Shown here: piece by piece, positions 16,962 to 59,677 of the stretch
Layout of the letters: every line of letters begins with the position of its first letter
Numbering within the stretch: the stretch's first letter is position 1
Assembly (NCBI GenBank): GCA_041910055.1
Contig: JAYRRP010000002.1
Location: 21,211-85,210 of the forward strand
DNA length: 64,000 nt
From: Candidatus Saccharimonadales bacterium
GTDB taxonomy: Bacteria > Patescibacteriota > Saccharimonadia > Saccharimonadales > JAYRRP01
Reading direction: 5' to 3'
Notes under the pieces: model-generated
What the model was told of the DNA's origin: nothing
The model's database searches: none
The model's input: only the letters and a program-made list of their open reading frames with translations
Position numbers and translations under genes: made by a program

Positions 16962-17495
16962 TCAGCTCTCTTCTAAACATAAAGGCATTGAAGTAATACT
17001 GACAAGATTATTATTGAGCGGCAAGACTAGCTGGTCATAAAGCCCAGCGATACCGTGTAAGCTGCTGAGCGATTCAGGCTGACCATCAAATATCTCCGGC
17101 AAAAGTGGCTCAACCACTAACCCAAGACCATTTTGGTACCACGTTGCTTCACTAGTTGACCACGACGATGGCGTGTGAGCAGGTAGTTGCTCTAAAAACG
17201 GGGTGGGCACAATGGTCATTAATTCTCCAAAACCTGTTATCTCATGAACAATGGCGGCATCCGTAGAAGCATTTTCCATCGCATATAAACCACTAAAGAA
17301 AAGCAGACGTTCCCCAAGAGTCTGGTGCGCATAGTCAGAAGCTGTTGAGACCATAACTACTTCGGCTTCCACCACACCCGCAAACGAAGCATTGACTTCA
17401 AAGTAATCCCTTGCCATGTTCTCAAGTTCCGATAGGTCATGCGCGTCCTGCAAAAGCGCAACCTCTAGTGACATTGCCTCCATAATTAACCTCAT
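16962..17495 (-). CDS. Hypothetical acidic protein (177 aa)
   Basis: Uninterrupted ORF in a tight co-directional gene array. No motif recognised. Confidence 0.5.
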   Translation of the reverse strand: MRLIMEAMSLEVALLQDAHDLSELENMARDYFEVNASFAGVVEAEVVMVSTASDYAHQTLGERLLFFSGLYAMENASTDAAIVHEITGFGELMTIVPTPFLEQLPAHTPSSWSTSEATWYQNGLGLVVEPLLPEIFDGQPESLSSLHGIAGLYDQLVLPLNNNLVSITSMPLCLEES

Positions 17496-17565
17496 TATAC
17501 CGTATGTTCAATAGTGGTATTGTGCCAGGTTGCCTGCCAAGATAATTGTCAATTATTTTGGGTAT

Positions 17566-18231
17566 TCACTCTACAAAATAATCAGACCAATTACTCCAGA
17601 TATCTTCTGTTTTAGGGAGAAATGTTGCGGCTACTAATTGTGGAAATTTGCTGGCCATTTGAACATCATAATTTTTCTTAAACCATTCGTACATTGTCAT
17701 GCGATCGGCAACATCATTACTATCAGTAAACAAATATTGCAAATTTGGAGTGATAGCTCTTGGCACGAGCAAACCGCAAACCGCTGCCTTATTAACCGCT
17801 GGTTTGTATAACGCAACCGCAGCAACTGTACGCAACGAATTTTCTGCTACAATCTCACTCGTTTGCTGACGCAATCTCGCCATAATGTCCTGCTCATTAA
17901 TCTCTGCCGCTCTTGTTTGGTACGGGGTGATTAATCGGTCATACCCTTCTATAAAATCCTCTTGCAGCTGGGTAAAATTTTGAGGATGAGTATCGCCAGG
18001 TGCAAATATAATTTTTTGAGTAATGTTATATCTATCACCTCTTAGGTTATTTATATACGCCGCGCCTAAGATCGGGCGGGGATACAATTTCAGTGTTGAA
18101 TACACCTCAGGTTTTATACCTTCAAAATTAAAACGCTCGAGCTCTCTTGTTTCGATTAGAACTTCCTGCAAACTTTTGCGCTCAAGATTCGGAGTGATAT
18201 CAATAACATTATTTTCTGGAAAGTATTCCAT
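17566..18231 (-). CDS. Hypothetical protein (221 aa)
   Basis: Uninterrupted ORF. No motif recognised. Confidence 0.5.
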   Translation of the reverse strand: MEYFPENNVIDITPNLERKSLQEVLIETRELERFNFEGIKPEVYSTLKLYPRPILGAAYINNLRGDRYNITQKIIFAPGDTHPQNFTQLQEDFIEGYDRLITPYQTRAAEINEQDIMARLRQQTSEIVAENSLRTVAAVALYKPAVNKAAVCGLLVPRAITPNLQYLFTDSNDVADRMTMYEWFKKNYDVQMASKFPQLVAATFLPKTEDIWSNWSDYFVE

Positions 18232-18277
18232 ATATCGCCTGCCAATCTCGTTTCTCGTGCGTCCTTATTTAATCAAG

Positions 18278-18892
18278 CTATACTCGTTTTAGCATACCAT
18301 CATTACGACGGATGAACTCTTCAGTGTCTGACACTAAAGTTGTGTCGTCAGCATGATCAGCCGTTTTTCCGGCTTGCGATACATATAAAACATCTTTAAA
18401 AATCTCAAAATTATAACCCTTGCAGAAATCAACAAATTGCTGCATATTCACTGGCTCTAAAACCTGTCGCAATTCCACCTGTTTACCAGGTGTGCAGTAA
18501 ACCTTGAAATAATCCGGAAAGTCACCCTCCAGCTCAGCTGGCTCCAATAAATTGTTGGACACTCTTTCCGCCAACAATTTCAAAAGCAGGCTGTTCTCTC
18601 CAACTGCGACAATATGCAAATTGGTATTCCGTGGCAATGTCACGAGGAGCATGACATCTCCAGCTGAGTTGGTCAACAAATTGTAAGGGTACTTCGCAAT
18701 GCTCCCTTTTGCCATTGATTGACTGGAAGCATTCAACTGTCGCGAAGAAATCACCGGGTCATCGTAGCGGTTGGCGATAATTGTCGGGGTAACTTTATAA
18801 TGCCAATAAATTGACCTGAGCAGCATGTACAAGCCAACCAACATAAGAATGGCAAGTGATAACCGCCAGTCCCCACCGCCATAATATCCCAT
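18278..18892 (-). CDS. Hypothetical membrane-anchored protein (possibly DUF3137-like)
   Basis: 204 aa with an N-terminal TM (LSLAILMLVGLYMLL). The segment LEPAELEGDFPDYFKVYCTPGKQVELRQVLEPVNMQQFVDF resembles, from memory, the DUF3137 pattern (E..F...F.VY.......R.LL.P..M). This is low-confidence. Confidence 0.45.
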   Translation of the reverse strand: MGYYGGGDWRLSLAILMLVGLYMLLRSIYWHYKVTPTIIANRYDDPVISSRQLNASSQSMAKGSIAKYPYNLLTNSAGDVMLLVTLPRNTNLHIVAVGENSLLLKLLAERVSNNLLEPAELEGDFPDYFKVYCTPGKQVELRQVLEPVNMQQFVDFCKGYNFEIFKDVLYVSQAGKTADHADDTTLVSDTEEFIRRNDGMLKRV

Positions 18893-20287: not shown

Positions 20288-20842
20288 TTATCCTCTCGTA
20301 GTACCATTACGCTTTGTCTTCTCTATCAATTCCTTCATTATGTCATTTAGTTGTTTGGCTTCGGTCTCCCCCGCTAACCCATAAAAAGGTTCATGGGTCA
20401 TTGTAGTATCATTCAACTCCGTTGATCTTTTCCAATAAATCTGTGGTTTATCTGAGGTTGTACTCTCCAACATATACATGAGATATTGCTTATCTTCTTC
20501 ATGCTTCGCTGTCAGTCGAGGTAAGCCTTCCACCGCCAGCTCGGCTACATCATACTCGTCTTTACTGGTGAGTCGCTGAAGCATTAACTTGGCGTGCCAG
20601 CCATATTCCTGAGGATCTGCCGCTACATGCAAGGCAAGCATAGTATCTTCTTGGGGATCAACATACTCAATCAGCGTGTGAATTGGAGTTTCAAATCCTG
20701 ATAGATAGACCGGCTCTGCACAGTAATGACGTTTACCAAGTAAAACACATGAATGAGCAAGTAAATCGTAGGTCTCCTCTGTTAAAGGAGGTGCGAGCTC
20801 ATTACTAGCATAAGCAAATAACTCAGACTCTGGTGAAGACAT
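20288..20842 (-). CDS. Hypothetical acidic protein (184 aa)
   Basis: ORF preceded by an AT-rich 74-nt gap and a GAGG-type SD. No motif recognised. Confidence 0.5.
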   Translation of the reverse strand: MSSPESELFAYASNELAPPLTEETYDLLAHSCVLLGKRHYCAEPVYLSGFETPIHTLIEYVDPQEDTMLALHVAADPQEYGWHAKLMLQRLTSKDEYDVAELAVEGLPRLTAKHEEDKQYLMYMLESTTSDKPQIYWKRSTELNDTTMTHEPFYGLAGETEAKQLNDIMKELIEKTKRNGTTRG

Positions 20843-20916: not shown

Positions 20917-21597
20917 CTAGGGCCGGACAAACTTCGTACCTACGCGCCGCGCAAGATCAAAGCAATCATTAGTAATTAGTTCTACCCCAGTAATGCGCCC
21001 CAGTGTCTGGGGCGAGGACGCTGATACAGCAACCCTTAAAAGCTTAATATGATTCGGCGTAAACCTACCCCTGTTGTCAGGCCGGAATTCCATAGCTTCA
21101 CCCGCGTCAAACGTATAACGTGCTGCATCTGTCTGGCGTACTTTAAATGATGGCAAATGCCCACTCAGTTTTAGGAATTGCAACCAGAACCACAAGCCAG
21201 TTAATTTACTATCCCGCGAAGTTTCATCAAGTGCAGCAAGTGCTTTATGTAATAGATCATAGTACTCCTGTCCGCCTCCCTCTTCGGTTGTCCGGTCAAT
21301 AGTTTTTAGTAACTCATACCCTGTCTGCAAATGATCTGCGTCTTTAATGATATTGCCAAAGTGCGAAGCAAGTCTTGAAGAAATAAGGGTGTATATTTCA
21401 CTGCGCCCTTTCATAATAGTGAGGCTGCTTATGCTGAAAAGTTCAATGCCGCCAGACAGTTTGCTTTTAGCTTTCCTCACACCTTTAGCAATAATTCTTA
21501 ATTTTCCTTGGTCAGGAGTTATAACTGCCAGTATCCGGTCTGCTTCTGCAAAATTTATCCTTGAGAGAATAATGCCGCTGGTAACAATTTGATTCAT
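20917..21597 (-). CDS. recO: DNA repair protein RecO
   Basis: I start it at ATG 21597 (MNQIVTSGIILSRINFAEADRILAVITPDQGKLRIIAKGVRKAKSKL, a RecO OB-fold N-terminus). The start forms an ATGA overlap with the stop of the upstream receiver gene. Confidence 0.8.
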   Translation of the reverse strand: MNQIVTSGIILSRINFAEADRILAVITPDQGKLRIIAKGVRKAKSKLSGGIELFSISSLTIMKGRSEIYTLISSRLASHFGNIIKDADHLQTGYELLKTIDRTTEEGGGQEYYDLLHKALAALDETSRDSKLTGLWFWLQFLKLSGHLPSFKVRQTDAARYTFDAGEAMEFRPDNRGRFTPNHIKLLRVAVSASSPQTLGRITGVELITNDCFDLARRVGTKFVRP

Positions 21598-21968
21598 GCC
21601 GTGAGACAGATATTTTCTACCATGCGAGTTAGGTGGACAAGCTTGGCGTTTGGTTTGTAAAGGTACAGCGCCTTTAGCTGTCGCCATTGATCATTGTCAT
21701 TCATGGATTTAAGCGGTATTGCGCCTAGGGCAATCACCGGTATATCACGGCAGTCTCGGTATGATCGCAATTCATATAAAAATTCAATACCATTATGCAA
21801 CGGCATACTTATATCTAAAACAATAATATCTGGGATTTGATGATCCACTGTCGCTATCGCAGCCTGCGCACTTGTTTTCCAGATCACCTCATGGCCCTGG
21901 ACTTGAAAAGCTCGGGAGTAGCTGTGGCCCAAAATTATGTCGGGTTCCACTAAAAGTATGCGGACCAT
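21594..21968 (-). CDS. Stand-alone receiver (REC) domain protein, partly degenerate
   Basis: 124 aa. MVRILLVEPD (E-P-D instead of the usual acidic pair), phospho-acceptor context IIVLDISMP, conserved Lys-Pro (YKP). The usual Thr/Ser position reads VIALGA. Confidence 0.75.
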   Translation of the reverse strand: MVRILLVEPDIILGHSYSRAFQVQGHEVIWKTSAQAAIATVDHQIPDIIVLDISMPLHNGIEFLYELRSYRDCRDIPVIALGAIPLKSMNDNDQWRQLKALYLYKPNAKLVHLTRMVENICLTA

Positions 21969-21972
21969 ATAA

Positions 21973-22734
21973 TTAGATCAAGCTCAGTTGGCCAGCGGGC
22001 ATCAAGGTTGCCGCTAAGCCTGTTAATTTTTGGTGCTGGGCCACTCGCAAGCCACTCGACATATGGGTTAATAGTGCTTCTGCAAGATAGACTGCGCCAC
22101 CGTTTGCAGCAAAATGTGGTAGCGGTTGTTTGACATTACCAAGTAGGGTGCGGCCACGTCGAAGCATTTGATTCGTTAAAGGAATCTCGGACTTCGCAAA
22201 GAGCCCTGCTACAATCCCCCCCCTACTACGATGTGAACCAAGTTTCACCACCGAACGTTTCTCCGCAGTGCTTGCCTGATTTTCGATGAATAGACTACCC
22301 AAAGATAGCAAGGCTGCTTGCAGACCTCGCCGATGGACAAGAACCGGCTCATAACGTCCGCTCATGTGTAACTCAATATCGCAATTATATTCTTGGCCAA
22401 AAGAAGAAAGTTGATGAGCAGTATCATTAAGGACAGCGCTGATCGCCACTGGTTCGAGTGTTATACCTTGTGCTAGTTCTAGGCTCAGCAAATAGTTGTC
22501 GATAAAGCGGTGGGCATGATCAGCAATTCCCTCTATAGCAGTAAGTGCTGAATCAGCCTCATTGGTGATTTTACCAAGCTCTGCCCGCCGAGCAATCTGG
22601 ATAAGTGGTAACTGCAGGCCAGCTGCTACCGCAAACAATAAGCGTTGTTTAGTGTCTTCATTCTGATCCGTCTCAACATGCGAAATTGGCACGCGAAATC
22701 CCTCTCTTCGTTTCCCTAATGCCCAGTATAACAA
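21973..22734 (-). CDS. Soluble histidine-kinase-like protein lacking the catalytic signatures (pseudo-HK)
   Basis: 253 aa with no TM. It is collinear with HisKA+HATPase_c but degenerate. The H-box position reads AAGLQLPL (versus SHELRTPL). The N-box reads LLSLGSLFIENQ. The G1 position reads VAGLFAK and G2 reads GGAVYLAEA. The start codon (TTG 22734) is uncertain. Confidence 0.45.
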   Translation of the reverse strand: MLYWALGKRREGFRVPISHVETDQNEDTKQRLLFAVAAGLQLPLIQIARRAELGKITNEADSALTAIEGIADHAHRFIDNYLLSLELAQGITLEPVAISAVLNDTAHQLSSFGQEYNCDIELHMSGRYEPVLVHRRGLQAALLSLGSLFIENQASTAEKRSVVKLGSHRSRGGIVAGLFAKSEIPLTNQMLRRGRTLLGNVKQPLPHFAANGGAVYLAEALLTHMSSGLRVAQHQKLTGLAATLMPAGQLSLI

Positions 22735-22740
22735 TTCTAA

Positions 22741-23403
22741 CTATGGTACAAAAGTGAGATTTGCCAAGACAATACTATCAAGATCCGGCGTGAACTGACT
22801 GGATTCTGTCCATATTTTCAGTGTTTTATCGCGAGAGGGTAGTAATATTATAGTCCCTTGTTTTTTAGGAAATATTTCTCCCTCTAAACGTGTTCCAGTG
22901 ACTCCAGGCACTTTGGGTGCTTTATAGGAAGTAGATTTGACTCTGCCGGTTTTTACGTAAGATGCATAGAACTTTACTTCTTGGTCATAAGGTTTCTCAC
23001 TCACTTGCACCCTGATAGCAAAATTCGTACCTGAACTTACGCCAGGAACATAATCCGGATGGAAGTAACCATCTACCGGATTTGCGGTTGCCGCATTCTC
23101 ACTTACGTAGCCACTCCAAGTTTTCGGATAATTTATACTCACCGTACCATACGCTGCGGGCGAAATATAATTTCGGTAAGGCTGCTTTTCTTTTTCTTCC
23201 CATTCTTTATCTTTTTCTTTTTTAGTTGTTTCGGTAGCATCTGCCACTGCTGCACTTATTTTTTGGTCAGTATTGTTCTTGTAATCCTGCCGACCCATGA
23301 AAGCCCACACCCCAAATCCAACTGCTCCTAAAAATAAAACTATAAATACTATCATGAAAACCAACGTCAAGCTGACTTCGCCGCGCCGGTCTATTTGTTT
23401 CAT
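22741..23403 (-). CDS. Membrane-anchored extracytoplasmic protein, hypothetical
   Basis: I start it at ATG 23403 (MKQIDRRGEVSLTLVFMIVFIVLFLGAVGFGVWAF). It has a single N-terminal TM, a Lys/Glu-rich linker and a beta-rich C-terminal domain. It is the first gene of the pseudo-HK/REC/recO array. Confidence 0.5.
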   Translation of the reverse strand: MKQIDRRGEVSLTLVFMIVFIVLFLGAVGFGVWAFMGRQDYKNNTDQKISAAVADATETTKKEKDKEWEEKEKQPYRNYISPAAYGTVSINYPKTWSGYVSENAATANPVDGYFHPDYVPGVSSGTNFAIRVQVSEKPYDQEVKFYASYVKTGRVKSTSYKAPKVPGVTGTRLEGEIFPKKQGTIILLPSRDKTLKIWTESSQFTPDLDSIVLANLTFVP

Positions 23404-23448
23404 ACCGGTTATGGTAACTGAGAAGTTTAGCCTACGCAAGTTTTGGTG

Positions 23449-27409: not shown

Positions 27410-27829
27410 TCAACCTTCGAGGTGTTGCTTAATCCGTTCGACTACATCAGCAATAACTACTTGTGATTTAACTAAATAATCGTCTGCACCCAATGATTTG
27501 GCTTTTTCCTTATCAGAATCCTGACTCAGAGCGGTCAGCATCATCACCTTTACCTTAGATGTCTCTGGGGTATTACGCAGAATATCAAGCACATCAAACC
27601 CGCTTACTTTAGGCATCATTACATCAAGCAATATCAAATCTGGTTTATATTCTAATGCCGACTGTAAGGCATCTTCTCCGTTAGGTACTCGGCGGACATC
27701 AAAGTTTTCTGCCTGTAAACGTGTTTGGTAGACGCTCGCCAGAGCGTCATCATCTTCTACTAGCAAAATCTTTTTACCACTTGTTTTGTCACTCGGTTGA
27801 AAAGTACTTACATCATTCATAAGGCTCAT
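27410..27829 (-). CDS. Orphan CheY-like response regulator (REC only)
   Basis: 139 aa with all canonical residues: LLVEDDD, LILLDVMMP, MMLTAL, DYLVKS. Confidence 0.85.
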   Translation of the reverse strand: MSLMNDVSTFQPSDKTSGKKILLVEDDDALASVYQTRLQAENFDVRRVPNGEDALQSALEYKPDLILLDVMMPKVSGFDVLDILRNTPETSKVKVMMLTALSQDSDKEKAKSLGADDYLVKSQVVIADVVERIKQHLEG

Positions 27830-33750: not shown

Positions 33751-34857
33751 CTAGTTGTGATCAGGTCTCGTTGCTGGTCGCTGCTCAAGCCACGCACCCA
33801 TAAAAGCATCCAGTTCACCCCTCAGGACAGCCTCAGCATCAGACGTTTCGTATTTTGTGCGCAAATCTTTTACCATTTTATATGGATGTAACACGTAACT
33901 ACGGATTTGGTTCCCCCACTCTGCTGACTGATGTGGGCCTTTTAGGCGATCCAATGATATTTGATGTTGTTCAGCTTGCAAGCGTGCCAATTTAGAACGC
34001 AGAATCGTCAGCGCAGTCTCTTTGTTTTGGAGTTGAGATCGCTCGTTCTGGATTGTCACTTGTATATTAGTCGGCAGATGGGTCACGCGAACGGCTGAAT
34101 CGGTCGTATTCACGCTTTGACCACCATGTCCACCAGCACGAAAGACATCTATCTTAAGATCGTCCTTATCTATTTCGATCTCTTTTGGCGTATCTATCTT
34201 TGGTAATATCTCTACTTTCGCAAAACTTGTTTGCCGCAAATTATCAGCATTAAAGGGGCTGAGTCGTACCAAACGGTGAACCCCATGTTCGCTTTGTAAT
34301 TTCCCATAGGCGTAAGGCAAAGTCACGACAAACACTACTCTCTTTAATCCTGCTTCCTCTCCACTTGATTGATCAAGCACCTTGCAAGTACCCCCAGATT
34401 TCTCAACCCATCGCAAATACATATTGAACAACATTTGTGTCCAATCTTGGGCATCGGTACCTCCTGCCCCTGCATAGATGCTGATTATAGCCGGGTGATC
34501 GTCATAGGGGCCACTAAAAAGTAAGTCGCGCTTTAATTTGTTAAGTTGTTTCGTCATTTCCTCAATTTGCTGAGATAATTCCAGTGCTATACCCGGGTCC
34601 GCCAAATTATGTAACTCTTTAACCTCTTCCAGTTCCGTGCGCATTTTCAACCAGGGCTCAGCTTGGTTTTTAACCCGTTGATAACGCTCTACAACCGTCT
34701 GAGCTTGTTGATTATCCTGCCAAAAATCAGGTTCAGCCATTTTTTGCTGAAGTTCCTCCATCTGTAGATGAAATTTTTCAAGCTCAGAATTGCGGGCAGC
34801 TTCTTCAAAGTCCCGCTCTAACTCCCTCAACCTCTTCTGGTTGTCTTCGTTTGTCAT
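33751..34857 (-). CDS. prfB: Peptide chain release factor 2 (single uninterrupted ORF, no +1 frameshift)
   Basis: 368 aa. SPF tripeptide (LSPFNADNLRQTSFA), GGQ ([22 protein letters not shown]) and an in-frame N-terminus. Confidence 0.92.
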   Translation of the reverse strand: MTNEDNQKRLRELERDFEEAARNSELEKFHLQMEELQQKMAEPDFWQDNQQAQTVVERYQRVKNQAEPWLKMRTELEEVKELHNLADPGIALELSQQIEEMTKQLNKLKRDLLFSGPYDDHPAIISIYAGAGGTDAQDWTQMLFNMYLRWVEKSGGTCKVLDQSSGEEAGLKRVVFVVTLPYAYGKLQSEHGVHRLVRLSPFNADNLRQTSFAKVEILPKIDTPKEIEIDKDDLKIDVFRAGGHGGQSVNTTDSAVRVTHLPTNIQVTIQNERSQLQNKETALTILRSKLARLQAEQHQISLDRLKGPHQSAEWGNQIRSYVLHPYKMVKDLRTKYETSDAEAVLRGELDAFMGAWLEQRPATRPDHN

Positions 34858-38906: not shown

Positions 38907-39266
38907 TTACCCGCGACGTGAGAGGCGACGAAGAAGCCGCCGGTGCAAACGAAAAGAGCCCTGGGTCTCTTTATAGCGTTTGAGCTGATTCTTGAGTTTG
39001 GCAGCCACTATATCAATGGCGGCAAACATATTTATAGTCGTCTCTTTTGCAGTAAGCGTATCATGCGGCAGATGGAGAATCACCTCGCAACTACATTCTT
39101 TCTTCGCTTTTACTTTGTGCTGCTGAAGTTTTACCTCAGCGTGAAGAGATTTACGGGCATGCCTAGAAATATACTGATCCAAACGGCCTATTTTTTTTGC
39201 TGCATACTTACGAACGTCATCATCAAGTGTAAAGTGGATACCACTAATTTCAAGACGTGAAATCAT
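38907..39266 (-). CDS. hpf: Ribosome hibernation factor, short HPF/RaiA (S30AE) type
   Basis: 119 aa. MISRLEISGIHFTLDDDVRKYAAKKIGRLDQY. The hpf-secA-prfB synteny matches that in Firmicutes. Confidence 0.8.
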   Translation of the reverse strand: MISRLEISGIHFTLDDDVRKYAAKKIGRLDQYISRHARKSLHAEVKLQQHKVKAKKECSCEVILHLPHDTLTAKETTINMFAAIDIVAAKLKNQLKRYKETQGSFRLHRRLLRRLSRRG

Positions 39267-40558
39267 ATTCGTTCTCTCCCTCCCATATAAGGAATTAAGA
39301 CCTTTGGTATTGCTACGCTGCCATCAGCTTGCTGAAAATTTTCAATAATTGCAATTAACGGACGTTGAGAAAACACCGTCGCATCATTGGTATGGACAAG
39401 CTCCATTGTTCCATCTGGTTTTTTAACACGAATCTTAAGACGTCTCGCTTGATAGTCAGTCATGTAATCAGCTGTATGGGTTTCCCGGTATTTACCTTGC
39501 CCAGGTAACCATACTTCCACATCCCACCCCCGCGCATTCGGTTTGCCAATATCAGCCGTGCACTTATTCAGAACGCGATAGGGTAAATCCAATGCCTGCA
39601 TAAGATGTTCCTGTAAAGCAATCATTAAAAGGTGCTCCTGTAAAGCTGATAAGGAAGAACTTAGGCTCTCCATCTCCAGCTTGTCGAATTGGTGCATACG
39701 AATAATCCCTTCAGTGTCTTTGCCATAACTGCCAGCTTCTTTGCGGAAAGAGGTGGCAAAACCGATATAACGAAGCGGCAACTGGCTCTCGAGCAATACT
39801 TCATTGGCGTGCATACTCCCGAGTACATGCTCCGCGCTGCCTTGCAGCCAAAGTTCTTCGCCCTCAATTTTATAACGGTCATCTCGAGGATCAAGACGAT
39901 CCATTGCTTCGTACATATCCGTTTTAATCATAAGAGGAGGCAATACTGGGGTAAAAGGTGTGTCAGCTACCTCCAAACCATTTTTGGCAATTACCTCCGC
40001 CAGAACCATGCGATCGGTCAGCTGATCAAGAGCAAACTGCATTAATGCCCATTGCAGACGCACTAAATCTCCCTTGATATAAGCAAATCGCGCTCCGGCC
40101 ACTTTTGCTGCTCGTTTTTTATCTATCCACATTCGGTTTTCAGCCAATTCCCAATGATTTTTGGGTTTAAATGAAAAATTGGGTGGCTCTCCGACTGTCT
40201 TTGCCACAACATTATCAGCCTCACTTTTCCCAACTGGCACATCTTTATAAGGCATATTGGGTACCTGCTTCAATAAGGTAAGGTATTCACTATCTAGCGA
40301 AACTAATCTGTGTTCAGCATCGGCAAGCTCAGTTTTTAGCTGACGAGCAACCTGGGTTTTCTCAGTATCAGGCCCCTCACCCAGCGGTTGCTTGGCCATT
40401 TGTTTACGCCATCGGCGTAAATCCTCAACCTTCTGCAACATTTCCCGACGCGCCTGATCAAAGCCCAGCAACTGTTTAATATCGACACTATACCCTTTTT
40501 GACTTGATTTATCGGCTACTTCCTCAGGGTGTGAACGAATAAACTGAATGTCAAGCAT
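39263..40558 (-). CDS. serS: Serine--tRNA ligase
   Basis: 431 aa. N-terminal coiled-coil arm (MLDIQFIRSHPEEV...) followed by a class II catalytic core. Confidence 0.92.
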   Translation of the reverse strand: MLDIQFIRSHPEEVADKSSQKGYSVDIKQLLGFDQARREMLQKVEDLRRWRKQMAKQPLGEGPDTEKTQVARQLKTELADAEHRLVSLDSEYLTLLKQVPNMPYKDVPVGKSEADNVVAKTVGEPPNFSFKPKNHWELAENRMWIDKKRAAKVAGARFAYIKGDLVRLQWALMQFALDQLTDRMVLAEVIAKNGLEVADTPFTPVLPPLMIKTDMYEAMDRLDPRDDRYKIEGEELWLQGSAEHVLGSMHANEVLLESQLPLRYIGFATSFRKEAGSYGKDTEGIIRMHQFDKLEMESLSSSLSALQEHLLMIALQEHLMQALDLPYRVLNKCTADIGKPNARGWDVEVWLPGQGKYRETHTADYMTDYQARRLKIRVKKPDGTMELVHTNDATVFSQRPLIAIIENFQQADGSVAIPKVLIPYMGGRERI

Positions 40559-40605: not shown

Positions 40606-41445
40606 TCATTTCAGTAACTCAAGGATTGGACCAGATGGTCTGGAGACAGGTTTATGCTTTTTCTTATCTTTTTGCATATGTGTAAGCGTAAGCTGTGTGC
40701 GTTGTTTCGCATATTCACAATACTCACAGACACCCCCCATGGCAGCCACTCCCACAGGTGGCATATCACCTTCCATACATTGCTTCATTTCTCCCAGAGC
40801 TGGTTCAATCCAGCCATCATTCCCAATATAAGCTATAATCTTGGTCTGAAATTCAACCTTATCGTAAAAGCCATCCAAATCAAGCCGGCCGTTGGTATAA
40901 ACAAAATAGCCAGTATCGCTTACCTGAAAGCCATTCTGCCTAAGCAGCCACTGATAAACTTCCAATTGGCGCTTATAAGATATTTGCCAAGGTGCCTCCA
41001 ATGAGACTTCGCCCGCCTTAGCGGTGGCTTTATAGTCAACGACTATCAACTTCCCTGATTCATCCACCCATAGATCGTCAATTGCCCCAAAAACGCGCAG
41101 ATTAGTAGGAGTATGCAATGTCCGAACACCAGTAAGGTTGTGGCGCCATTGCGGAAGGTCATCATGCTGCAGGGGCACTGCTTTAATCTGATTGTCCGTC
41201 ATCCACGGATGCGGCTCCTGTTTTTGACGGTAAGTATCAAATTCTTTTTTCAGTAACTCATCAATTGCCTTGTTAATTTGGAAGGGCGGCATTGATGGAC
41301 GGGATATTTTAAGCCGGACGTCCAGCCAAAAACAACGCGGGCATTGCATAAACAGCTCGATTTTACTTCGGCTCACCTCAAATGGCACTATTTGGCCCGG
41401 TTTGTAAGGATTGCGTCGCTTCCGCCATTGATTTGAAATTGCCAT
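40606..41445 (-). CDS. PD-(D/E)XK nuclease with Cas4/AddB-like Cys cluster
   Basis: I start it at ATG 41445 (MAISNQWRKRR...). One N-terminal Cys pair (CPRCFW) plus a C-terminal CEYCEY suggests a 4Fe-4S cluster. The nuclease motif is DDLWVDESGKLIVVDYK. Confidence 0.6.
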   Translation of the reverse strand: MAISNQWRKRRNPYKPGQIVPFEVSRSKIELFMQCPRCFWLDVRLKISRPSMPPFQINKAIDELLKKEFDTYRQKQEPHPWMTDNQIKAVPLQHDDLPQWRHNLTGVRTLHTPTNLRVFGAIDDLWVDESGKLIVVDYKATAKAGEVSLEAPWQISYKRQLEVYQWLLRQNGFQVSDTGYFVYTNGRLDLDGFYDKVEFQTKIIAYIGNDGWIEPALGEMKQCMEGDMPPVGVAAMGGVCEYCEYAKQRTQLTLTHMQKDKKKHKPVSRPSGPILELLK

Positions 41446-41450
41446 GGCTT

Positions 41451-42155
41451 TTATTGTAACAGTTGGGCTACCACCACCGCACAAGCAGTTTCGGCTCGTA
41501 GAGTAAAGTTATGAAGATTCATCTTGCGTAAATGATATATCTTAAATTGTTGCTTTTCTTCTTCACTCCATCCGCCTTCCGGACCTACAAAAACTCCTAC
41601 TGTCTTTTCACTCAGCTGGCTATCAGGAGATTGCTCTGTATTTCTTTCACACCAATAAGTTGCCATTTTAGGAGTGTACTCATCGAGTGCTGTCCGCAAA
41701 CTAATTGGTTGGCGTATAGATGGTAAGCTGCTGCGGCCGCATTGCTCAGTTGCCTCGATCATAATTTTGTGCCAACGCTCCAACTGACTATCCGATAATG
41801 ATTTTTTTTCGCTGCGGGCACTTATTATGGGCACTAAATGGCCAACCCCTAGTTCTGTGCATTTCTGCACCACCCAATCGTTCTTATCTCTTTTTAGTAG
41901 TGACCAAAAGAGAAATACTTCCTTCTTAGGCAAATTACGAACAGTCTCCGTTACTAACTCCAACTCAGCTTCGTTCTCATTCAAGCTTATAATCCTGTAG
42001 ATTCGCTCATGCTGAACCCCATCAAACAAGACTAACTCCTGCCCAGGCCGAAACCGCAACACTCGATTCCATTGCTGCAACAGGCCACGATCATGAAGCC
42101 ACATAGTCTGCCGTAGTATCGTGTCAGGCTCGATATAAAAACGATGAAGTTTCAT
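41451..42155 (-). CDS. rsmE: 16S rRNA (uracil1498-N3)-methyltransferase RsmE
   Basis: 234 aa. MKLHRFYIEPD N-terminus (PUA-like) and C-terminal SPOUT motifs (GPEGGWSEEE, LRAETA). Confidence 0.8.
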   Translation of the reverse strand: MKLHRFYIEPDTILRQTMWLHDRGLLQQWNRVLRFRPGQELVLFDGVQHERIYRIISLNENEAELELVTETVRNLPKKEVFLFWSLLKRDKNDWVVQKCTELGVGHLVPIISARSEKKSLSDSQLERWHKIMIEATEQCGRSSLPSIRQPISLRTALDEYTPKMATYWCERNTEQSPDSQLSEKTVGVFVGPEGGWSEEEKQQFKIYHLRKMNLHNFTLRAETACAVVVAQLLQ

Positions 42156-42203: not shown

Positions 42204-43025
42204 TTAGGGACGCAAAGCACCGAAGAAAATCTGCCAGGCCAGCGCCGTTTTAGCTACTAGGCTCAATATCATATAAATTCGTTCCCCATACAGATAATCT
42301 GCCCACTTTCCTTGCCGGCGATACTGCAGGAACATGTTGACCGCAAAGCTCATGAAGAAAACAAATAAGCTTACGTAAATCCAATAGACAAATGCAGGAA
42401 TTTTACCAGAGCCATATACCCGCGCACCCCATAGGTAAATCGTGAAGACAACCCAGGGCACAATTCCGGCTAACCAACCAATTTTGTAACTTAACCAATC
42501 GGTTGTTTTCTGACCCAGGTTCTGTACTTCCATGATAAGCCCTAACAGGCTCATGACCGCACAAAGCGTAAATATCATAATGAGACTGGAGAGATCGTAT
42601 ACACCAGTGAGTAAGCCGATAGCCACCAGCATTGTGCTCGCACTAAAGGCATATTCGACCCAGCGCGTCCGATTAATACCCTGCCGTAATCCGGCTTCAT
42701 ACCTTTGGCGATAGACGGTTGCCAGAAATCCGTGGGCGATCGCCGACATGAAGAAGAAAGCTGCAATCAGCCAGGCCATACGCACATCAAACAAGTGGCG
42801 CATGGCAGGAGCGAGGACAGGTTTACCGCTTGCCTGAGTCGCCAACATATTCGTTGTTAAATAACTAGTCGTGACAGGAAAAGTAACTGCCTTGCTTAAA
42901 ACAAGGACTGCAATACCCTGGACCGCATGCAACAAGGCTAAACTTACGTTCCATTTATAAAGATTTGGTTCTTTGACAGATGTGGTAGATTTTTTTATCT
43001 TTTTGGTTGCTTGCTTTTTTGCCAT
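42204..43025 (-). CDS. Heliorhodopsin (7-TM retinal protein, inverted topology)
   Basis: 273 aa. From memory it is collinear with heliorhodopsin 48C12: NRTRWVEYAFSASTMLV (Glu counterion), GWLAGIVPW, PAFVYWIYVSLFVFFMSFAVNMFLQYRRQGKWADYLYGERIYMILSLVAKTALAWQIFFGALRP (Schiff-base Lys259, codon 42251-42249). His33 and His98 are also conserved. Confidence 0.85.
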   Translation of the reverse strand: MAKKQATKKIKKSTTSVKEPNLYKWNVSLALLHAVQGIAVLVLSKAVTFPVTTSYLTTNMLATQASGKPVLAPAMRHLFDVRMAWLIAAFFFMSAIAHGFLATVYRQRYEAGLRQGINRTRWVEYAFSASTMLVAIGLLTGVYDLSSLIMIFTLCAVMSLLGLIMEVQNLGQKTTDWLSYKIGWLAGIVPWVVFTIYLWGARVYGSGKIPAFVYWIYVSLFVFFMSFAVNMFLQYRRQGKWADYLYGERIYMILSLVAKTALAWQIFFGALRP

Positions 43026-43118
43026 GGCATCACTATAGCATGATTTACAGCTTAGAAGTTATTTTATTCGCCTTTGGACACTATGCTTTGCGGTTAACTT
43101 CTAGAAACTTCATCTATA

Positions 43119-44654
43119 TTAAGCTTGGAGTCGTAGACGTTTTATAAGCCAGTCACGCGGTAAAATGCTCAAAAACCATCCCGCTCTCGGTCCGGATTGT
43201 TGATCAATCAGTACTTTGTAAAGAGTTCCAAATAGTTCTTGGGCTGGCAAATCATGCGTACCCTTAAATTCGTAAATTGTTTTATGAAACCACTCTCCAT
43301 CTGCGTCTATTGGAGCCATCTCTACCTTCGCTGCAAGTTGGCAAAGGTAGTTCCTTTGTGGGTCAGTTAGCTGTAGGCCATCTAGTGATTTACGAAGTTC
43401 AAACTTCACATCGTCCGGCGCCCATTTATCAAGCCAGGCATCAATAAAGCGAAGTTCTTTGCTAATAACCTCTGCTTGCTGTTGAACCGTATCGGCATGT
43501 TCCGTACGACGAATAATATCTAGGGTTTTAACTTTATCACGCAGGGCTGCTTGATAACTGGCCACTAGATGTGAAAATGGCACATTACTGATAGTATTTC
43601 CACCTTTAATAGGGTGAGTGCAAATATACAATAGTAGTTCATCTTCTTTCGTTTTATCCGGCTTTGCCAGAAGTTCAGCGAAGTCATCAATTAGACGCAC
43701 TACACCATCTGTCTCATCAAAAAAAAGCTGCTTGCTTGGCGGATACCGCAAGACAAAATAGCGTACGATCTCTGGCGGTAAGACTTCCAGGAGTTCTGAA
43801 ATGGTGACAGTATTACCGGCACTCTTACTCATCTTCTTGGTCTCACCTGAACGGTTAATAAACTGGTATGGAACTGGTAACGGTGCTTTACCCCCAAAAA
43901 TATCTTTTACGAGGGCCGCACCAGTGTCATAGCTTCCTCCCTTTGCAGCATGGTCACGTCCAAACGGCTCTACATGGACAGACAATAGCCACCACCGTGC
44001 TGGCCAGTCAAGTCGCCAATCAAGCTTCACGTCACCCTTATCGTAGCTAATAGTCTGTTCTTGTCCTTTTATATCTTTATAGGAGAGCTGTTTCTTTTCA
44101 GTATCAAGGCGAACAAATGGGCGTTTTTTTAGATAGCCATCTTCGTTTACCTGAATTGGCGACCATTCTTCCCCTAAACTTCGGCCTGATACATCCTCAA
44201 GCACACGCTTGGCCTCAGAGATGTTCATAAGTGTTTTCTCAATCGACGGAACAAAATAACCACTTCGGTATTTCTCATGACTGCGTACGACTTCCATATC
44301 AATACCAAGTACATCAACATTTTTAATGAAGTCACTTAGGTAGTAATTTGCATATGAGTCAGCCTCCGGCTCTGGTGAAGGTACATCACAAACAGGTTTA
44401 CCAAGGTATTTTGAAAACTCCTCTGGCACGCCAGTGGGTATTTTACGCAGACCATCAAGATCATCAACAAAATGCACATGATGCGCCTCACGACCACGCT
44501 TACGTAGAATCAGCAGTATTGCATCGGCAGTTAAGACTTCGCGAAGCGTACCAATATGATACTTCCCTGATGGTGAAACTCCAGAGGATATCAAAACAGC
44601 GTCGCTTGGGTATAAGCGTTCTAACTCGTCAGCAATTTGATTGAGCCACAGCAT
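43119..44654 (-). CDS. lysK: Class I lysine--tRNA ligase (archaeal-type LysRS)
   Basis: 511 aa. SGVSPSGKYHIGTLREV (HIGH-like motif of class I LysRS), FVDDLDGLRKIP and KMSKSAGN. Confidence 0.88.
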   Translation of the reverse strand: MLWLNQIADELERLYPSDAVLISSGVSPSGKYHIGTLREVLTADAILLILRKRGREAHHVHFVDDLDGLRKIPTGVPEEFSKYLGKPVCDVPSPEPEADSYANYYLSDFIKNVDVLGIDMEVVRSHEKYRSGYFVPSIEKTLMNISEAKRVLEDVSGRSLGEEWSPIQVNEDGYLKKRPFVRLDTEKKQLSYKDIKGQEQTISYDKGDVKLDWRLDWPARWWLLSVHVEPFGRDHAAKGGSYDTGAALVKDIFGGKAPLPVPYQFINRSGETKKMSKSAGNTVTISELLEVLPPEIVRYFVLRYPPSKQLFFDETDGVVRLIDDFAELLAKPDKTKEDELLLYICTHPIKGGNTISNVPFSHLVASYQAALRDKVKTLDIIRRTEHADTVQQQAEVISKELRFIDAWLDKWAPDDVKFELRKSLDGLQLTDPQRNYLCQLAAKVEMAPIDADGEWFHKTIYEFKGTHDLPAQELFGTLYKVLIDQQSGPRAGWFLSILPRDWLIKRLRLQA

Positions 44655-45268: not shown

Positions 45269-46534
45269 TTAAGAATGGTGAGGCTTCACGAACTGGCCAA
45301 GCAGTTCATGAAGATTAACCAATTTGATTTCTTCTGAACCGCGGGCTTTTAATTCTACCATACTTTTTTGCACAGTCTTATCACTAATAACCACGCGCCA
45401 TGGGATACCCAGTAAATCTGCATCGGCAAACTTCTCACCCGGCCGCATATCCCGATCGTCATATAAGACATCGACACCGGCAAGCTGCAATTTAGCAAAC
45501 AGATCATCAGCAGCTTGCACCACATGTGTTTCAGTACCCAGACGAGCTAGATAGACTTGAGCTGGCGCAATATCCTCAGGCCAGATAAGGCCTCTGTTAT
45601 CAGCAAAGTGTTCTGCCAATAAACCCATCAGTCGGCTAATACCAATCCCGTAGCAACCCATGATAATAGAATGCTGTTTGCCGGCTTCATCGGTATAACG
45701 CACATCAAGCGCATCGGTGTACTTGGTTTCTAAGGGAAAGATATTCCCTACTTCTACCCCACGTTTCTCGACTAGGTCAGGCTTATTTAAACCAAGTTTT
45801 CGCAAATTCTCATCAGTATAGACCTCTTTATTTACGGCAACTTTTCTCTGCTCATCAACATAAATCGTGTCTTCGCCAATAGGACTCACCGTCTGAAATT
45901 CATCACTAAATTTCTCAGTAAAAATACCTCCATCGGCTGCTGTTCGATAGGTGATATCACCAATACCGAGCCGTTCGTATACACGGTCGTAAGCTTTAGC
46001 CGCCTTTTCATAGAGTGCTTCATGCTCCTTCTGACTACGTGCCAATGAATACATATCTTTCATAACGAATTCACGGCCGCGTAACAGCCCGCTTTTCGCA
46101 CGAAGTTCATTCCGGAATTTGCTCTGTATCTGGTAGACGTAAATCGGCAGATCTTTATAAGAGTTCACAAAACTGCTGAGAGCGTCAACTATAGGTTCCT
46201 CATGTGTTAAACCCATACCAAGTTCTGTTCCGTTTATTAGTTTTGTCTTGAACCAGTTATCTACTTTTTTGTCATCCCAACGGTCAGTCTTTTCAAAAAT
46301 ACCGCGTGGCTGCAGTACCGTCATTTGAACTTCTTGCCCGCCAATCCTGTTCATCTCTTCGCGCACAATCTGGGCAATCTTGTCGAGTACAATCTTGCCC
46401 AAGGGCAAGTAAGCATAGACACCCGCCATTTCTTTATGTATGTAACCAGCCTGGATGAGGAGTTGGGCATTTTTTGCCCGCTCATCAGCTGGAATGGTTT
46501 TGCTGGTTTTAGTAAATAGCTTAGATAGCCGCAT
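45269..46534 (-). CDS. proS: Proline--tRNA ligase, bacterial-type but lacking the INS editing domain
   Basis: 421 aa. Bacterial-type N-terminus (MRLSKLFTKTSKTIPADERAKNAQLLIQAGYIHKEMAGVYAYLPLG). Motif 2 and motif 3 are joined by only about 45 aa where E. coli ProRS carries the roughly 180-aa INS. The C-terminal anticodon-binding domain is present. Confidence 0.88.
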   Translation of the reverse strand: MRLSKLFTKTSKTIPADERAKNAQLLIQAGYIHKEMAGVYAYLPLGKIVLDKIAQIVREEMNRIGGQEVQMTVLQPRGIFEKTDRWDDKKVDNWFKTKLINGTELGMGLTHEEPIVDALSSFVNSYKDLPIYVYQIQSKFRNELRAKSGLLRGREFVMKDMYSLARSQKEHEALYEKAAKAYDRVYERLGIGDITYRTAADGGIFTEKFSDEFQTVSPIGEDTIYVDEQRKVAVNKEVYTDENLRKLGLNKPDLVEKRGVEVGNIFPLETKYTDALDVRYTDEAGKQHSIIMGCYGIGISRLMGLLAEHFADNRGLIWPEDIAPAQVYLARLGTETHVVQAADDLFAKLQLAGVDVLYDDRDMRPGEKFADADLLGIPWRVVISDKTVQKSMVELKARGSEEIKLVNLHELLGQFVKPHHS

Positions 46535-54960: not shown

Positions 54961-55716
54961 TTACACAGCTTTATCGCCCCAGTCCGAGAAAACCAAAACA
55001 ATAATTATAATCGCGAACATTACAAAGATAAGTTGACGACGAAGCAGCAAGGATAGCCGGTCTGTTTCCTCGAGATAATAGATTCCACCTAATCCAAAAC
55101 TAATTACCGATAAGAGCAAGGCCGGTTGTGCAATTACTCCGTAAAACAGCAGCCAGTGCGACAACACCCATACCAGAGACGCACCAAAATAGGCCCATGT
55201 ATACGCGAGAAACCGACTATAGCTCTCCTCAAAACTCGTAAAGAAATGCCGGGCCGCGGAGTAACAGACTAGCCAGGTTAAGAGCACCAACAGCCACGTA
55301 TCCATGCCACCATATTGTAGAAACACCGCGACCAGCCCAAACGACTGACCGATTATAGCCTGTACCGATACACCCAACACGCCGGTCTGACGTTTTATTA
55401 CTAGTAACCATACTCCATATGCAATTGCCCAAATCAGCTGTACCATCATTGACCCGCTATGGGTCATAAATGCCACGATGGAAAGACCTACAATAATGTC
55501 AATCGCATTTGCACGGATATTGGCCGGCCAATGGCGAGGCTTTACAGCAAACATGCGCCATTTGCTTAGTATTATCACCACCACTGCCAAAGGCACAAAG
55601 TGCGTCCGCACAAAGACAAATACCAAAGCCGGCAACAGGCTGGTTAAGGCAATGTGGACGAAATGCGAAAAGCCACTGGCCGGTTTAATTTTGGCCGTTA
55701 GTTGTCTCATTAGCAC
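54961..55716 (-). CDS. Hypothetical polytopic membrane protein (about 7 TM)
   Basis: 251 aa and highly hydrophobic. It overlaps the end of the LCP gene by 32 nt. No motif recognised. Confidence 0.55.
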   Translation of the reverse strand: MLMRQLTAKIKPASGFSHFVHIALTSLLPALVFVFVRTHFVPLAVVVIILSKWRMFAVKPRHWPANIRANAIDIIVGLSIVAFMTHSGSMMVQLIWAIAYGVWLLVIKRQTGVLGVSVQAIIGQSFGLVAVFLQYGGMDTWLLVLLTWLVCYSAARHFFTSFEESYSRFLAYTWAYFGASLVWVLSHWLLFYGVIAQPALLLSVISFGLGGIYYLEETDRLSLLLRRQLIFVMFAIIIIVLVFSDWGDKAV

Positions 55717-58062: not shown

Positions 58063-58929
58063 TTACTTTTTTGAGAGCTGCTTCAATATACGGGTTAGAT
58101 CAGCATCATCCTGAAAGACAATTTCCAAACGGCCGCCTTTCGCGGTTCGTTTCAGTTTGACAGGTGCCTGCAGGATCACGCTTAGTTTCTTTGTTTGGGG
58201 AGTCGTATCAAGGACTCTTTTCTTCACAGCTTCAGCTGATTTAATACCCTGCTTGTGAGCAAGTACAAAACGTTCTGCTTGGCGGACTGTCCAGCCATGT
58301 TTCCGTATCAATTGCAAGAGATAGTCCTGTGTTTGGGGCGTCTTTAAAGCCAAAATTGCGCGAGCATGCCCCTCAGTAATTTCCTTAGTGTGCAAGGCTT
58401 TCTGGGCTTTTGGTGATAACTGGAGCAAACGAACAATATTCATTACCGTTGACAAAGCTTTGCCTAAACGCTTGGCAATAACAGAGTATTCCTGGCTGAA
58501 TTGCTCGTGTAATCGTTGGATCGAGGCAGCTTGTTCTAATGGCGAAAGATCAACCCGTTGGACATTTTCCACGAGAGCAACTTCTAATTGCTGCAGTTCT
58601 TTAGTGGTGCGTACCACTGCTGGCACTGTTTTCAAACCTGCCAGCTGCGCTGCCCGCCACCGCCGTTCACCGGCAACAATCTGGTAGCGATCTTCGTGCA
58701 AAGGTGTAACAACCAGTGGCTGCAAAATACCATGGCGTTTGATTGATTCTGACAATTCAATTAAGAATTCCTGATCAAAATGCCGTCTTGGCTGGTGTGG
58801 ATTAGGTGCTAATTTAGTGATCGACAATTCTCTAATCCGCTCTTCTTTGTGAGTAAGGGCACTCACATCTAGGTTTTCTGGTATGAGCGCCTCGAATCCT
58901 TTTCCCAGACTCACATGTTTACGTGACAC
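58063..58929 (-). CDS. parB: Chromosome partitioning protein ParB (Spo0J)
   Basis: 288 aa. ParB box IVAGERRWRAAQLAG and an HTH region. Confidence 0.92.
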   Translation of the reverse strand: MSRKHVSLGKGFEALIPENLDVSALTHKEERIRELSITKLAPNPHQPRRHFDQEFLIELSESIKRHGILQPLVVTPLHEDRYQIVAGERRWRAAQLAGLKTVPAVVRTTKELQQLEVALVENVQRVDLSPLEQAASIQRLHEQFSQEYSVIAKRLGKALSTVMNIVRLLQLSPKAQKALHTKEITEGHARAILALKTPQTQDYLLQLIRKHGWTVRQAERFVLAHKQGIKSAEAVKKRVLDTTPQTKKLSVILQAPVKLKRTAKGGRLEIVFQDDADLTRILKQLSKK

Positions 58930-59677
58930 GGTTCTCTACCTCCTTCGCTAATTGCTTATAGCTTCGTGCACCCTTGGACCACTTATCATGCTCGGCAATC
59001 GTCTTGCCAAAACTCGGCGCCTCAGCTAAGCGGACATTCCGCGGAATAAGTGTACTGAGGACTTTGTCGCCAAAATGTTTTTGAAGTTCTTCGACTACTT
59101 GGTCAGACAATGAAGTGCGTCGATCATACATTGTGACCACCAGTCCAAGAATTTCCAAGTCTGGGTTGAGTCCACCTCTTACGCGTTTTATCACCTCCAG
59201 TAACTGGCTTAAACCTTCGAGGGCATAGTACTCAGCTTGTACTGGTATTAACACGTAGTGAGCTGCCGTCAAAGCATTCACTGTTAGTAAACCAAGTGCC
59301 GGTGGACAATCAATAATGATGTAGTCGTGAACGCACCCCGCTATGACCCGTTGCAGTTTATGTTCTCGTTTTGTTTCACCTGCCAGTTCCAACTCTGCTG
59401 CTGCCAGCGCTGAATTGCTTGGCGCCAAATTTAAACCGGCTGTTTCAGTGGCAAGAATTGCCTGATCTATCGTACAGCGCCCAAACAGGACGTCGTACAT
59501 TGTTCGTTCCAGTGAGTGCTTGTTCTGGCCTAAACCGCTCGTGGCATTTCCCTGTGGGTCGATATCCACCAGCAGAACTGTCTTGTCTTTCTTCGCTAAA
59601 TATGAAGCCAGATTAATTGCCGTAGTAGTTTTTCCTACTCCACCTTTTTGATTTATGACCGCGATGATATGGCTCAT
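58919..59677 (-). CDS. parA: Chromosome partitioning ATPase ParA (Soj)
   Basis: 252 aa. Deviant Walker A NQKGGVGKTT. Confidence 0.93.
   Translation of the reverse strand: MSHIIAVINQKGGVGKTTTAINLASYLAKKDKTVLLVDIDPQGNATSGLGQNKHSLERTMYDVLFGRCTIDQAILATETAGLNLAPSNSALAAAELELAGETKREHKLQRVIAGCVHDYIIIDCPPALGLLTVNALTAAHYVLIPVQAEYYALEGLSQLLEVIKRVRGGLNPDLEILGLVVTMYDRRTSLSDQVVEELQKHFGDKVLSTLIPRNVRLAEAPSFGKTIAEHDKWSKGARSYKQLAKEVENRVT

Follow-up and report, generated by a model that had tools for sequence, protein, structure and literature searches.

The stretch considered here, referred to as the window throughout, comprises 64,000 nucleotides of contig JAYRRP010000002.1 (assembly GCA_041910055.1) from a Candidatus Saccharimonadales bacterium. 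On its reverse strand, a gene for a heliorhodopsin (HeR) is enclosed by the gene for a class I lysyl-tRNA synthetase (LysRS, lysK) on the upstream side and that for the 16S rRNA methyltransferase RsmE on the downstream side (Table 1), an identification of the neighbours that had been made in a preliminary description of the sequence and is upheld by matches to PF01921 and PF04452, respectively. With a probability of roughly 75%, the gene encodes a functional HeR, i.e., a type-3 microbial rhodopsin, of a Saccharimonadia bacterium, which would serve as a non-transporting photosensor carrying scavenged retinal and would be expressed from its own leaderless promoter.

On the basis of two curated hidden Markov models, fold comparison and the presence of all catalytic residues, the open reading frame (ORF) is a genuine, intact, full-length heliorhodopsin. 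Residues 22–271 match the whole PF18761 Heliorhodopsin profile (1–242/242) with an E-value of 1.1e-87 and 293.9 bits (cutoff 26.7), bearing out the full-length assignment of the preliminary description, and the equivalog model NF038020 of NCBIfam (“heliorhodopsin HeR”) is matched with 294.6 bits (curated cutoff 100). A sequence search of the PDB returned TaHeR from the Thermoplasmatales archaeon SG8-52-1 (6is6) as top match (E 3.5e-62), and 48C12, the founding bacterial HeR, with an E-value of 1.8e-45 (6su3/9ljj). The alignment to the latter places residues 17–273 of the window HeR on residues 6–255 of 48C12, so that the claimed end-to-end collinearity holds; however, 48C12 had been taken as the reference relative, whereas TaHeR is the closer of the solved structures (46% versus 41% overall identity). 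Likewise, the TM6-TM7 block (residues 211–267), previously called nearly identical to that of 48C12, shares 65% identity with it and is better described as similar or conserved.

Residue equivalences were read from HMMER alignments to 48C12 and TaHeR, and conservation was counted over 119 relatives. The exact alignment substantiates the earlier assignment of Lys259, Glu124 and the two conserved histidines: His33 corresponds to H23, and His98 to H80 of 48C12 and H82 of TaHeR. Ser255 corresponds to S237 of 48C12 and S234 of TaHeR and opens the TM7 SxxxK motif (S255-L-V-A-K259), while Glu166 and Glu248 correspond to E149 and E230 of 48C12. All of these residues—H33, H98, E124, E166, E248, S255 and K259—are invariant in the 119 relatives. 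H23, H82, E108, S234 and K238 of TaHeR (PDB 6is6, 7u55) as well as H23, H80, E107, E149, E230, S237 and K241 of 48C12 (PDB 6su3, 6uh3, 9ljj) are conserved, and no residue of the Schiff-base region or of the cytoplasmic hydrogen-bond network that these two proteins have is changed in the window HeR. SLVAK is the commonest retinal motif of HeRs from the candidate phyla radiation (CPR) (PMC9166423).

An AlphaFold2 model, calculated from a 30-sequence alignment (mean pLDDT 84.4), contains helices at residues 22–43, 83–102, 119–139, 145–168, 178–204, 211–236 and 244–271, and the β-hairpin in the AB loop that is typical of the HeR family (strands 48–58 and 71–82). With this model as query, the top ten Foldseek matches in the PDB are all heliorhodopsins (TMt 0.82–0.90). 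TaHeR is the best match in structure as it is in sequence (TMt 0.90, root-mean-square deviation 2.1 Å), with 48C12 at TMt 0.82–0.86, so that the suggested comparison with both structures gave a superposition. Type-1 rhodopsins reach only E ~1e-3 and TM-scores of 0.4–0.6, an E-value some 15 orders of magnitude worse. A type-1 microbial rhodopsin identity was rejected on the grounds of these poor structural matches, the TM7 motif being SLVAK instead of DxxxK, and PF01036 (Bac_rhodopsin) being without a match to the window HeR at E <= 0.01.

In comparison to TaHeR, the AB loop of the window HeR is six residues and the EF loop five residues longer, and the Lys-rich N-terminus is extended. Residue 212 is Asn in the window HeR and in TaHeR, and Val in 48C12. 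Based on the helix boundaries of the model, 13 Lys and Arg residues lie on the same side of the membrane as the N-terminus, which is predicted to be cytoplasmic, and 6 lie opposite; residues 1–21 contain 7, in agreement with the Lys-rich N-terminus noted before and fitting the predicted N-in orientation. This charge distribution is consistent with the inverted topology, without amounting to proof.

Table 1. Positions of the features discussed in the text (coordinates refer to the window).
Feature	Position	Strand	Remarks
HeR coding sequence	42204..43025	(-)	273 aa, ATG to TAA
Lys259 codon AAA	42249..42251	(-)	predicted retinal Schiff-base Lys, SLVAK motif; K241 of 48C12, K238 of TaHeR; 119/119 relatives
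Glu124 codon GAA	42654..42656	(-)	predicted single Schiff-base counterion, TM3 RWVEY; E107 of 48C12, E108 of TaHeR; 119/119 relatives
Trp184 codon TGG	42474..42476	(-)	lateral-fenestration position; Cys166 of 48C12
Met225 codon	42351..42353	(-)	near the fenestration; conserved Asn207 of 48C12
Extended -10-like element TGCTATAGT	43032..43040	(-)	last T 6 nt before the A of the HeR ATG
lysK-HeR intergenic region	43026..43118	(-)	93 nt; no terminator-like or significantly structured element
Class I LysRS (lysK)	43119..44654	(-)	upstream neighbour; PF01921, E 7.8e-96; context, not a functional part
RsmE	41451..42155	(-)	downstream neighbour, 48 nt past the HeR stop; PF04452 and PF20260; context only
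PD-(D/E)XK nuclease ORF	40606..41484	(-)	listed TTG start, 292 aa; overlaps rsmE by 34 nt
SerRS	39263..40558	(-)	start-proximal -10 box
RF2	33751..34857	(-)	start-proximal -10 box
ProRS	45269..46534	(-)	start-proximal -10 box
PBP	11170..12942	(-)	start-proximal -10 box
ParA	58919..59677	(-)	start-proximal -10 box
Receiver-domain ORF	27410..27829	(-)	PF00072, stand-alone
Receiver-domain ORF	21594..21968	(-)	PF00072, stand-alone
ORF without Pfam match	16962..18892	(-)	E <= 0.001
ORF without Pfam match	20288..20842	(-)	E <= 0.001
ORF without Pfam match	21973..23439	(-)	E <= 0.001
ORF without Pfam match	54961..55716	(-)	E <= 0.001
ORF without Pfam match	6834..7769	(-)	E <= 0.001

Purifying selection on the gene is strong. 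In comparison to an 89%-identical orthologue, dN/dS is 0.04 for HeR, a value as low as that for LysRS (0.047), with dS near saturation. A sequence-identical protein is already contained in the NCBI data, and relatives are found at 60–71% identity (many at 60–65%), several of which NCBI lists as “heliorhodopsin HeR [Candidatus Saccharibacteria bacterium]”.

The conserved residues and the fold suggest a seven-transmembrane-helix protein with its Lys-rich N-terminus in the cytoplasm, in which Lys259 would form the covalent bond to all-trans-retinal and Glu124 would be the sole counterion. Most likely, no ions would be moved, as in TaHeR and 48C12. A different function has been described for the viral V2HeR3, for which the hallmark of proton transport is Glu191, working together with Trp195 and Glu205; the equivalents in TaHeR are I199, F203 and Q213 (PMC9448325). 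That the window HeR might be a light-driven or light-gated proton transporter of this kind, supplying or dissipating proton-motive force in an energy-poor epibiont, would accord with the transport of protons by some HeRs (PMC9448325) and with the few means that CPR cells have of building a proton gradient (PMC9296517). However, the three hallmark positions are occupied by Leu220, Phe224 and Gln234, which is the state of the non-transporting TaHeR and 48C12, and these are also the closest solved relatives; a proton transporter is, thus, very unlikely, and the absence of the V2HeR3 hallmarks favours a non-transporting photosensor.

As such a photosensor, the window HeR would be converted by light to a long-lived intermediate and would signal or regulate through contact with another protein. 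This presumed mode of action is taken from partnered members of the same family, namely AbHeR with glutamine synthetase (PMC9529153), TfHeR with photolyase (PMC9769723) and OcHeR with the ABC transporter OmrDE (PMC11109279), whose partner genes, in contrast, are neither adjacent to the window HeR nor present anywhere in the window; a partner cannot be named from the locus.

Pfam scans of the 63 ORFs of the window revealed only housekeeping functions, about a dozen ORFs being without a Pfam match. Among the genes are five or six aminoacyl-tRNA synthetases, SecA, RF1, RF2, PrmC, EF-Ts, S2, RRF and UppS, together with FtsEX, the dcw cluster, ParAB, TopA and DprA. In the same scans, neither carotenoid or retinal biosynthesis families (crt/blh), nor a second rhodopsin or member of the bacteriorhodopsin family, nor a histidine kinase or methyl-accepting chemotaxis protein was detected, in line with the previously stated absence of crtE/B/I/Y, blh and a transducer-like gene from the window. 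In rhodopsin-bearing Saccharibacteria, blh is reportedly missing, and uptake of external retinal by HeR via its lateral opening is fast (PMC9296517). Since no retinal pathway is encoded in the window and reportedly none in the clade, retinal is probably scavenged, the source presumably being membranes of the host or the community; the idea of retinal scavenging was developed for Saccharibacteria rhodopsins by Jaffe et al. 2022 (PMC9296517). The archaeal host of TaHeR is, according to work cited in PMC9296517, also without retinal synthesis, and TaHeR takes up external retinal via its lateral fenestration; the window HeR differs in that its host is a CPR bacterium. Two small stand-alone receiver-domain ORFs (PF00072) are located 14–20 kb from HeR, and a kinase gene to match them was not detected across the window.

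The lateral fenestration, through which retinal would enter, is the site of the only lineage-specific oddity of the window HeR. According to a preprint (bioRxiv 10.1101/2025.11.27.691015), the fenestration of 48C12 is lined by F162, C166, G169, F206 and A210, with N207 nearby; the window HeR has Tyr180, Trp184, Gly187, Phe224 and Ala228 at the equivalent positions and Met225 nearby. Among the 119 relatives, column 184 is occupied by Cys in 98, Ser in 7, Thr in 5, Ala and Val in 3 each, Ile in 2 and Trp in a single one, this being P0002, the 89%-identical orthologue from a sister species. The TGG codon is one base away from a Cys codon (TGY). Trp184 is not a sequencing error, because it is common to two species and several assemblies. 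In TaHeR, the replaced residue is Cys168. Met at the N207 position also occurs in 7 of the 119 relatives. The GWLAGIVPW segment, which had been called conserved, is therefore so with the exception of its W, which in this lineage has taken the place of a Cys that is normally conserved. As judged from the sequence, Trp184 might make this a HeR with a naturally closed fenestration, altered in retinal uptake, colour or carotenoid binding, and the natural variant lends itself to comparison with Cys-bearing relatives.

The same site bears on the possibility of a two-antenna rhodopsin, in which exogenous xanthophylls from a carotenoid-producing host would be bound at the lateral fenestration. Such a site is reported for 91% of HeRs (bioRxiv 10.1101/2025.11.27.691015), its signature is present in the window HeR, with Gly187 (G169), the aromatic pair Tyr180/Phe224 and Ala228 (A210), and pigmented Actinobacteria would offer carotenoids to an epibiont living on them (PMC9296517). 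Yet the fourth rim residue, Cys166, is Trp184 only here and in the closest relative, and the conserved Asn207 is Met225; both replacements could narrow or close the site. Moreover, the antenna hypothesis of the preprint is itself founded on docking and bioinformatics, and it concerns the capture of light while being silent on the downstream action of HeR. The two-antenna reading is considered unlikely for this protein.

With regard to expression, the extended −10-like element TGCTATAGT is found immediately upstream of HeR, where the coding strand reads ...TCATGCTATAGTGATGCC-ATG. From the end of the element 6 nt before the ATG, transcription is predicted to begin with the A of the start codon or beside it, giving a leaderless mRNA, and no Shine-Dalgarno motif precedes the HeR ATG. 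A consensus promoter scan that required a −35 box did not list the element. The layout TGnTAnnnT-N6-7-ATG, counted with an in-frame N-terminal ATG, is present in 43 of 72 HeR orthologues versus 67 of 847 other ORFs at the same loci, despite otherwise dissimilar intergenic sequences of the orthologues; in several of the others, a short GGAG-containing leader comes after TGCTATAAT instead. This recurrence strengthens the earlier proposal of an own extended −10 promoter giving a leaderless HeR transcript, which is regarded as plausible, and the conserved layout predicts HeR expression independent of the surrounding housekeeping genes.

Of the 63 genes of the window, 13 have a TATAAT-like hexamer that ends 5–9 nt before the start (expected from background: about 1.5; 2.3 in other 5-nt bins), among them those for SerRS, RF2, ProRS, PBP and ParA (Table 1), and a GGAG-type Shine-Dalgarno core is seen in only about 10 of the 63. 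Given these 13 start-proximal boxes, leaderless starts look common in this genome and not special to HeR. In the literature searched, no relevant paper on leaderless mRNAs in Saccharibacteria was found.

A regulatory RNA or terminator flanking HeR was considered and rejected: at gathering thresholds, Rfam gave no match in the whole window, both flanking gaps fold no better than shuffled sequences (z-score 0.03 for the 93-nt upstream gap), and there is no terminator-like site in either the upstream or the 48-nt downstream gap. HeR appears to be transcribed from its own promoter and possibly on into rsmE, the gap between them being free of terminators and structure.

For comparison of the locus across relatives, recurrent HeR neighbours were determined by clustering and annotating ORFs from 83 HeR-anchored loci. 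In about 50 of these, HeR is held in a co-oriented, conserved block with the order ProRS - GreA - LysRS - [ABC ATPase, MacB/FtsX-type permease, DUF427, MsrA, sortase(-)] - HeR - [U5 RNA methyltransferase, HAD hydrolase] - RsmE - PD-(D/E)XK nuclease - SerRS - HPF - SecA. The conserved neighbourhood, for which a test had been suggested, takes the form of a fixed slot in a housekeeping block, of which the window locus (LysRS-HeR-RsmE) is the most compact version; RsmE follows HeR directly in 13 related loci. Consequently, rsmE and lysK are neighbours through conserved housekeeping synteny and not evident functional partners.

In a second survey, metagenome contigs (L088–L167) were anchored on the PD-(D/E)XK gene, yielding 43 informative loci. 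HeR occupies its slot in 25 of them and is missing from it in the other 18, and the gene order is never different; in L153, LysRS2 is directly followed by RsmE, which is the window arrangement minus HeR, and in L098 and L122 MsrA adjoins HAD. On account of this variation, HeR is seen as an accessory gene that may be present or absent but whose place in the housekeeping block is fixed. For studies on habitat or transcriptomes, the filled and empty slots provide a natural contrast of loci with and without HeR. Spearman correlations of HeR identity with that of flanking proteins are about 0 for PDDEXK, SerRS and SecA, 0.41 for GreA and 0.29 for HPF, over an identity range too narrow to tell vertical from horizontal inheritance.

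The empty slots imply that HeR is dispensable and has been lost repeatedly, which would suit a decaying or non-photoactive relic; alternatively, the contig might be a contaminant misattributed to Saccharibacteria, since HeR contigs in Methanofastidiosum and Magnetospirillaceae metagenome-assembled genomes (MAGs) show that mis-binning occurs. A relic, however, is at odds with the intact ORF, the retention of all key residues, the dN/dS of 0.04 and the conserved promoter motif. Contamination is contradicted by the position of HeR midway in a 64-kb stretch of Saccharibacteria-type housekeeping genes and by the independent assembly of the same arrangement in several samples, a near-identical HeR protein with the same gene order being present in about 14 contigs. 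Both explanations are, therefore, highly improbable, and a functional HeR of a Saccharimonadia bacterium remains the favoured reading.

The host assignment was examined by scanning species-representative genomes with HeR. At least 572 genomes contain relatives; of the best 80, nearly all are Saccharibacteria/Saccharimonadales MAGs, and a few are Dojkabacteria. Twelve flanking housekeeping genes are syntenic with Saccharibacteria MAGs, and the CPR/Saccharibacteria origin surmised in the preliminary description is supported by both results. Bearing on a monoderm host, the 64 kb of the window encode an LCP (LytR-CpsA-Psr) protein, families for the biogenesis of an outer membrane were not detected in them, and a sortase gene adjoins HeR in related loci. 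The two MAG contigs mentioned above, L076 (Methanofastidiosum MAG, 1.6 kb) and L077 (Magnetospirillaceae MAG, 3.3 kb), carry a Saccharibacteria-like HeR of 54–57% identity; its occurrence on such short contigs of an archaeal and a diderm proteobacterial MAG is probably due to mis-binning and not real.

As to partners, the genes recurring around HeR in relatives give no direct guidance. MsrA is located upstream of HeR in most relatives, either directly or one gene (the sortase on the opposite strand) away, and the HAD hydrolase and/or the TRAM-domain U5 RNA methyltransferase are located downstream in most; in many, the MacB-type ABC pair lies 3–5 genes upstream, which is not the case at the window locus (examples of recurrent neighbours: L006:4067-4597, MsrA; L012:5272-5949, sortase on the opposite strand; L026:7440-8705; L038:6890-7522). 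Homologues of MsrA, sortase, DUF427, the MacB-type ABC pair, the U5 RNA methyltransferase and the HAD hydrolase are absent from the entire window; with nothing transferable, the derivation of a functional partner from the neighbourhood was rejected. Together with the fixed slot and the conserved promoter of HeR, the proximity of MsrA in relatives might point to an undescribed Saccharibacteria-specific HeR partner, e.g., in a light-dependent control of methionine-sulfoxide repair, and no paper connecting HeR with MsrA was found in the literature searched. Taken jointly, this idea and that of a fenestration closed by Trp184 are judged improbable.

Several points weigh against a non-transporting, retinal-scavenging photosensor with its own leaderless promoter. 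In the literature searched, no HeR from Saccharibacteria with measured retinal binding, photocycle or non-transport was found. According to the scans of the window, neither glutamine synthetase, photolyase, a MacB-type ABC transporter, MsrA nor a histidine kinase is encoded near HeR. Trp184 takes the place of the usual small fenestration residue and might hinder the lateral entry of retinal on which scavenging would depend, and the negative result for retinal genes covers 64 kb, so that such genes may sit elsewhere in the genome. The positive-inside bias (13 versus 6) is only moderate. Finally, the leaderless start is predicted from motif geometry, and read-through from lysK is possible because no terminator was found.

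HeRs of this host group are already known. Bulzu et al. 2021 (PMC8612252; bioRxiv 10.1101/2021.02.01.429150) described the HeR cluster C17, dominated by CPR/Patescibacteria, and analysed gene neighbourhoods; an analysis of HeR neighbours by Chazan et al. (2021) also covered Patescibacteria; and Chiriac et al. 2022 (PMC9166423) found 98 heliorhodopsins among 1326 CPR genomes, with Saccharimonadia accounting for 80, and proposed a link of CPR HeRs to protection from oxidative stress. The identification of the window HeR is correct, both the kind of gene and the host group are on record, and the novelty implied by the preliminary description does not stand in view of these surveys (PMC9166423, PMC8612252) and of the automatic naming by NCBI. 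It belongs to the same clade as the published CPR/Saccharimonadia HeRs, shares their SLVAK motif and shows no categorical difference; it deviates from them in Trp184 and in lacking the flanking MsrA, sortase, HAD and U5-methyltransferase genes of most relatives. As one more member of a surveyed family, with neighbours that give no functional clue, the gene matters little on its own. The fixed presence/absence slot, the conserved leaderless layout, the proximity of MsrA and Trp184 were not found reported in the literature searched; all of these are modest.

Some further observations concern the surroundings of HeR. ORFs of 170–310 aa without a Pfam match are listed in Table 1. For the PD-(D/E)XK nuclease ORF, the listed TTG start is probably too far upstream, orthologues being called at 279 or 247 aa; an alternative ATG at 41445 gives 279 aa beginning with MAISNQW. 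The slot right after greA, surveyed in related loci L004–L074 (e.g., L023:1096-2613), is occupied by class I LysRS (PF01921) in 17 loci, including the window, and by class II LysRS (PF00152) in 26, a swap at one and the same slot that looks like in-place non-orthologous displacement among Saccharibacteria.

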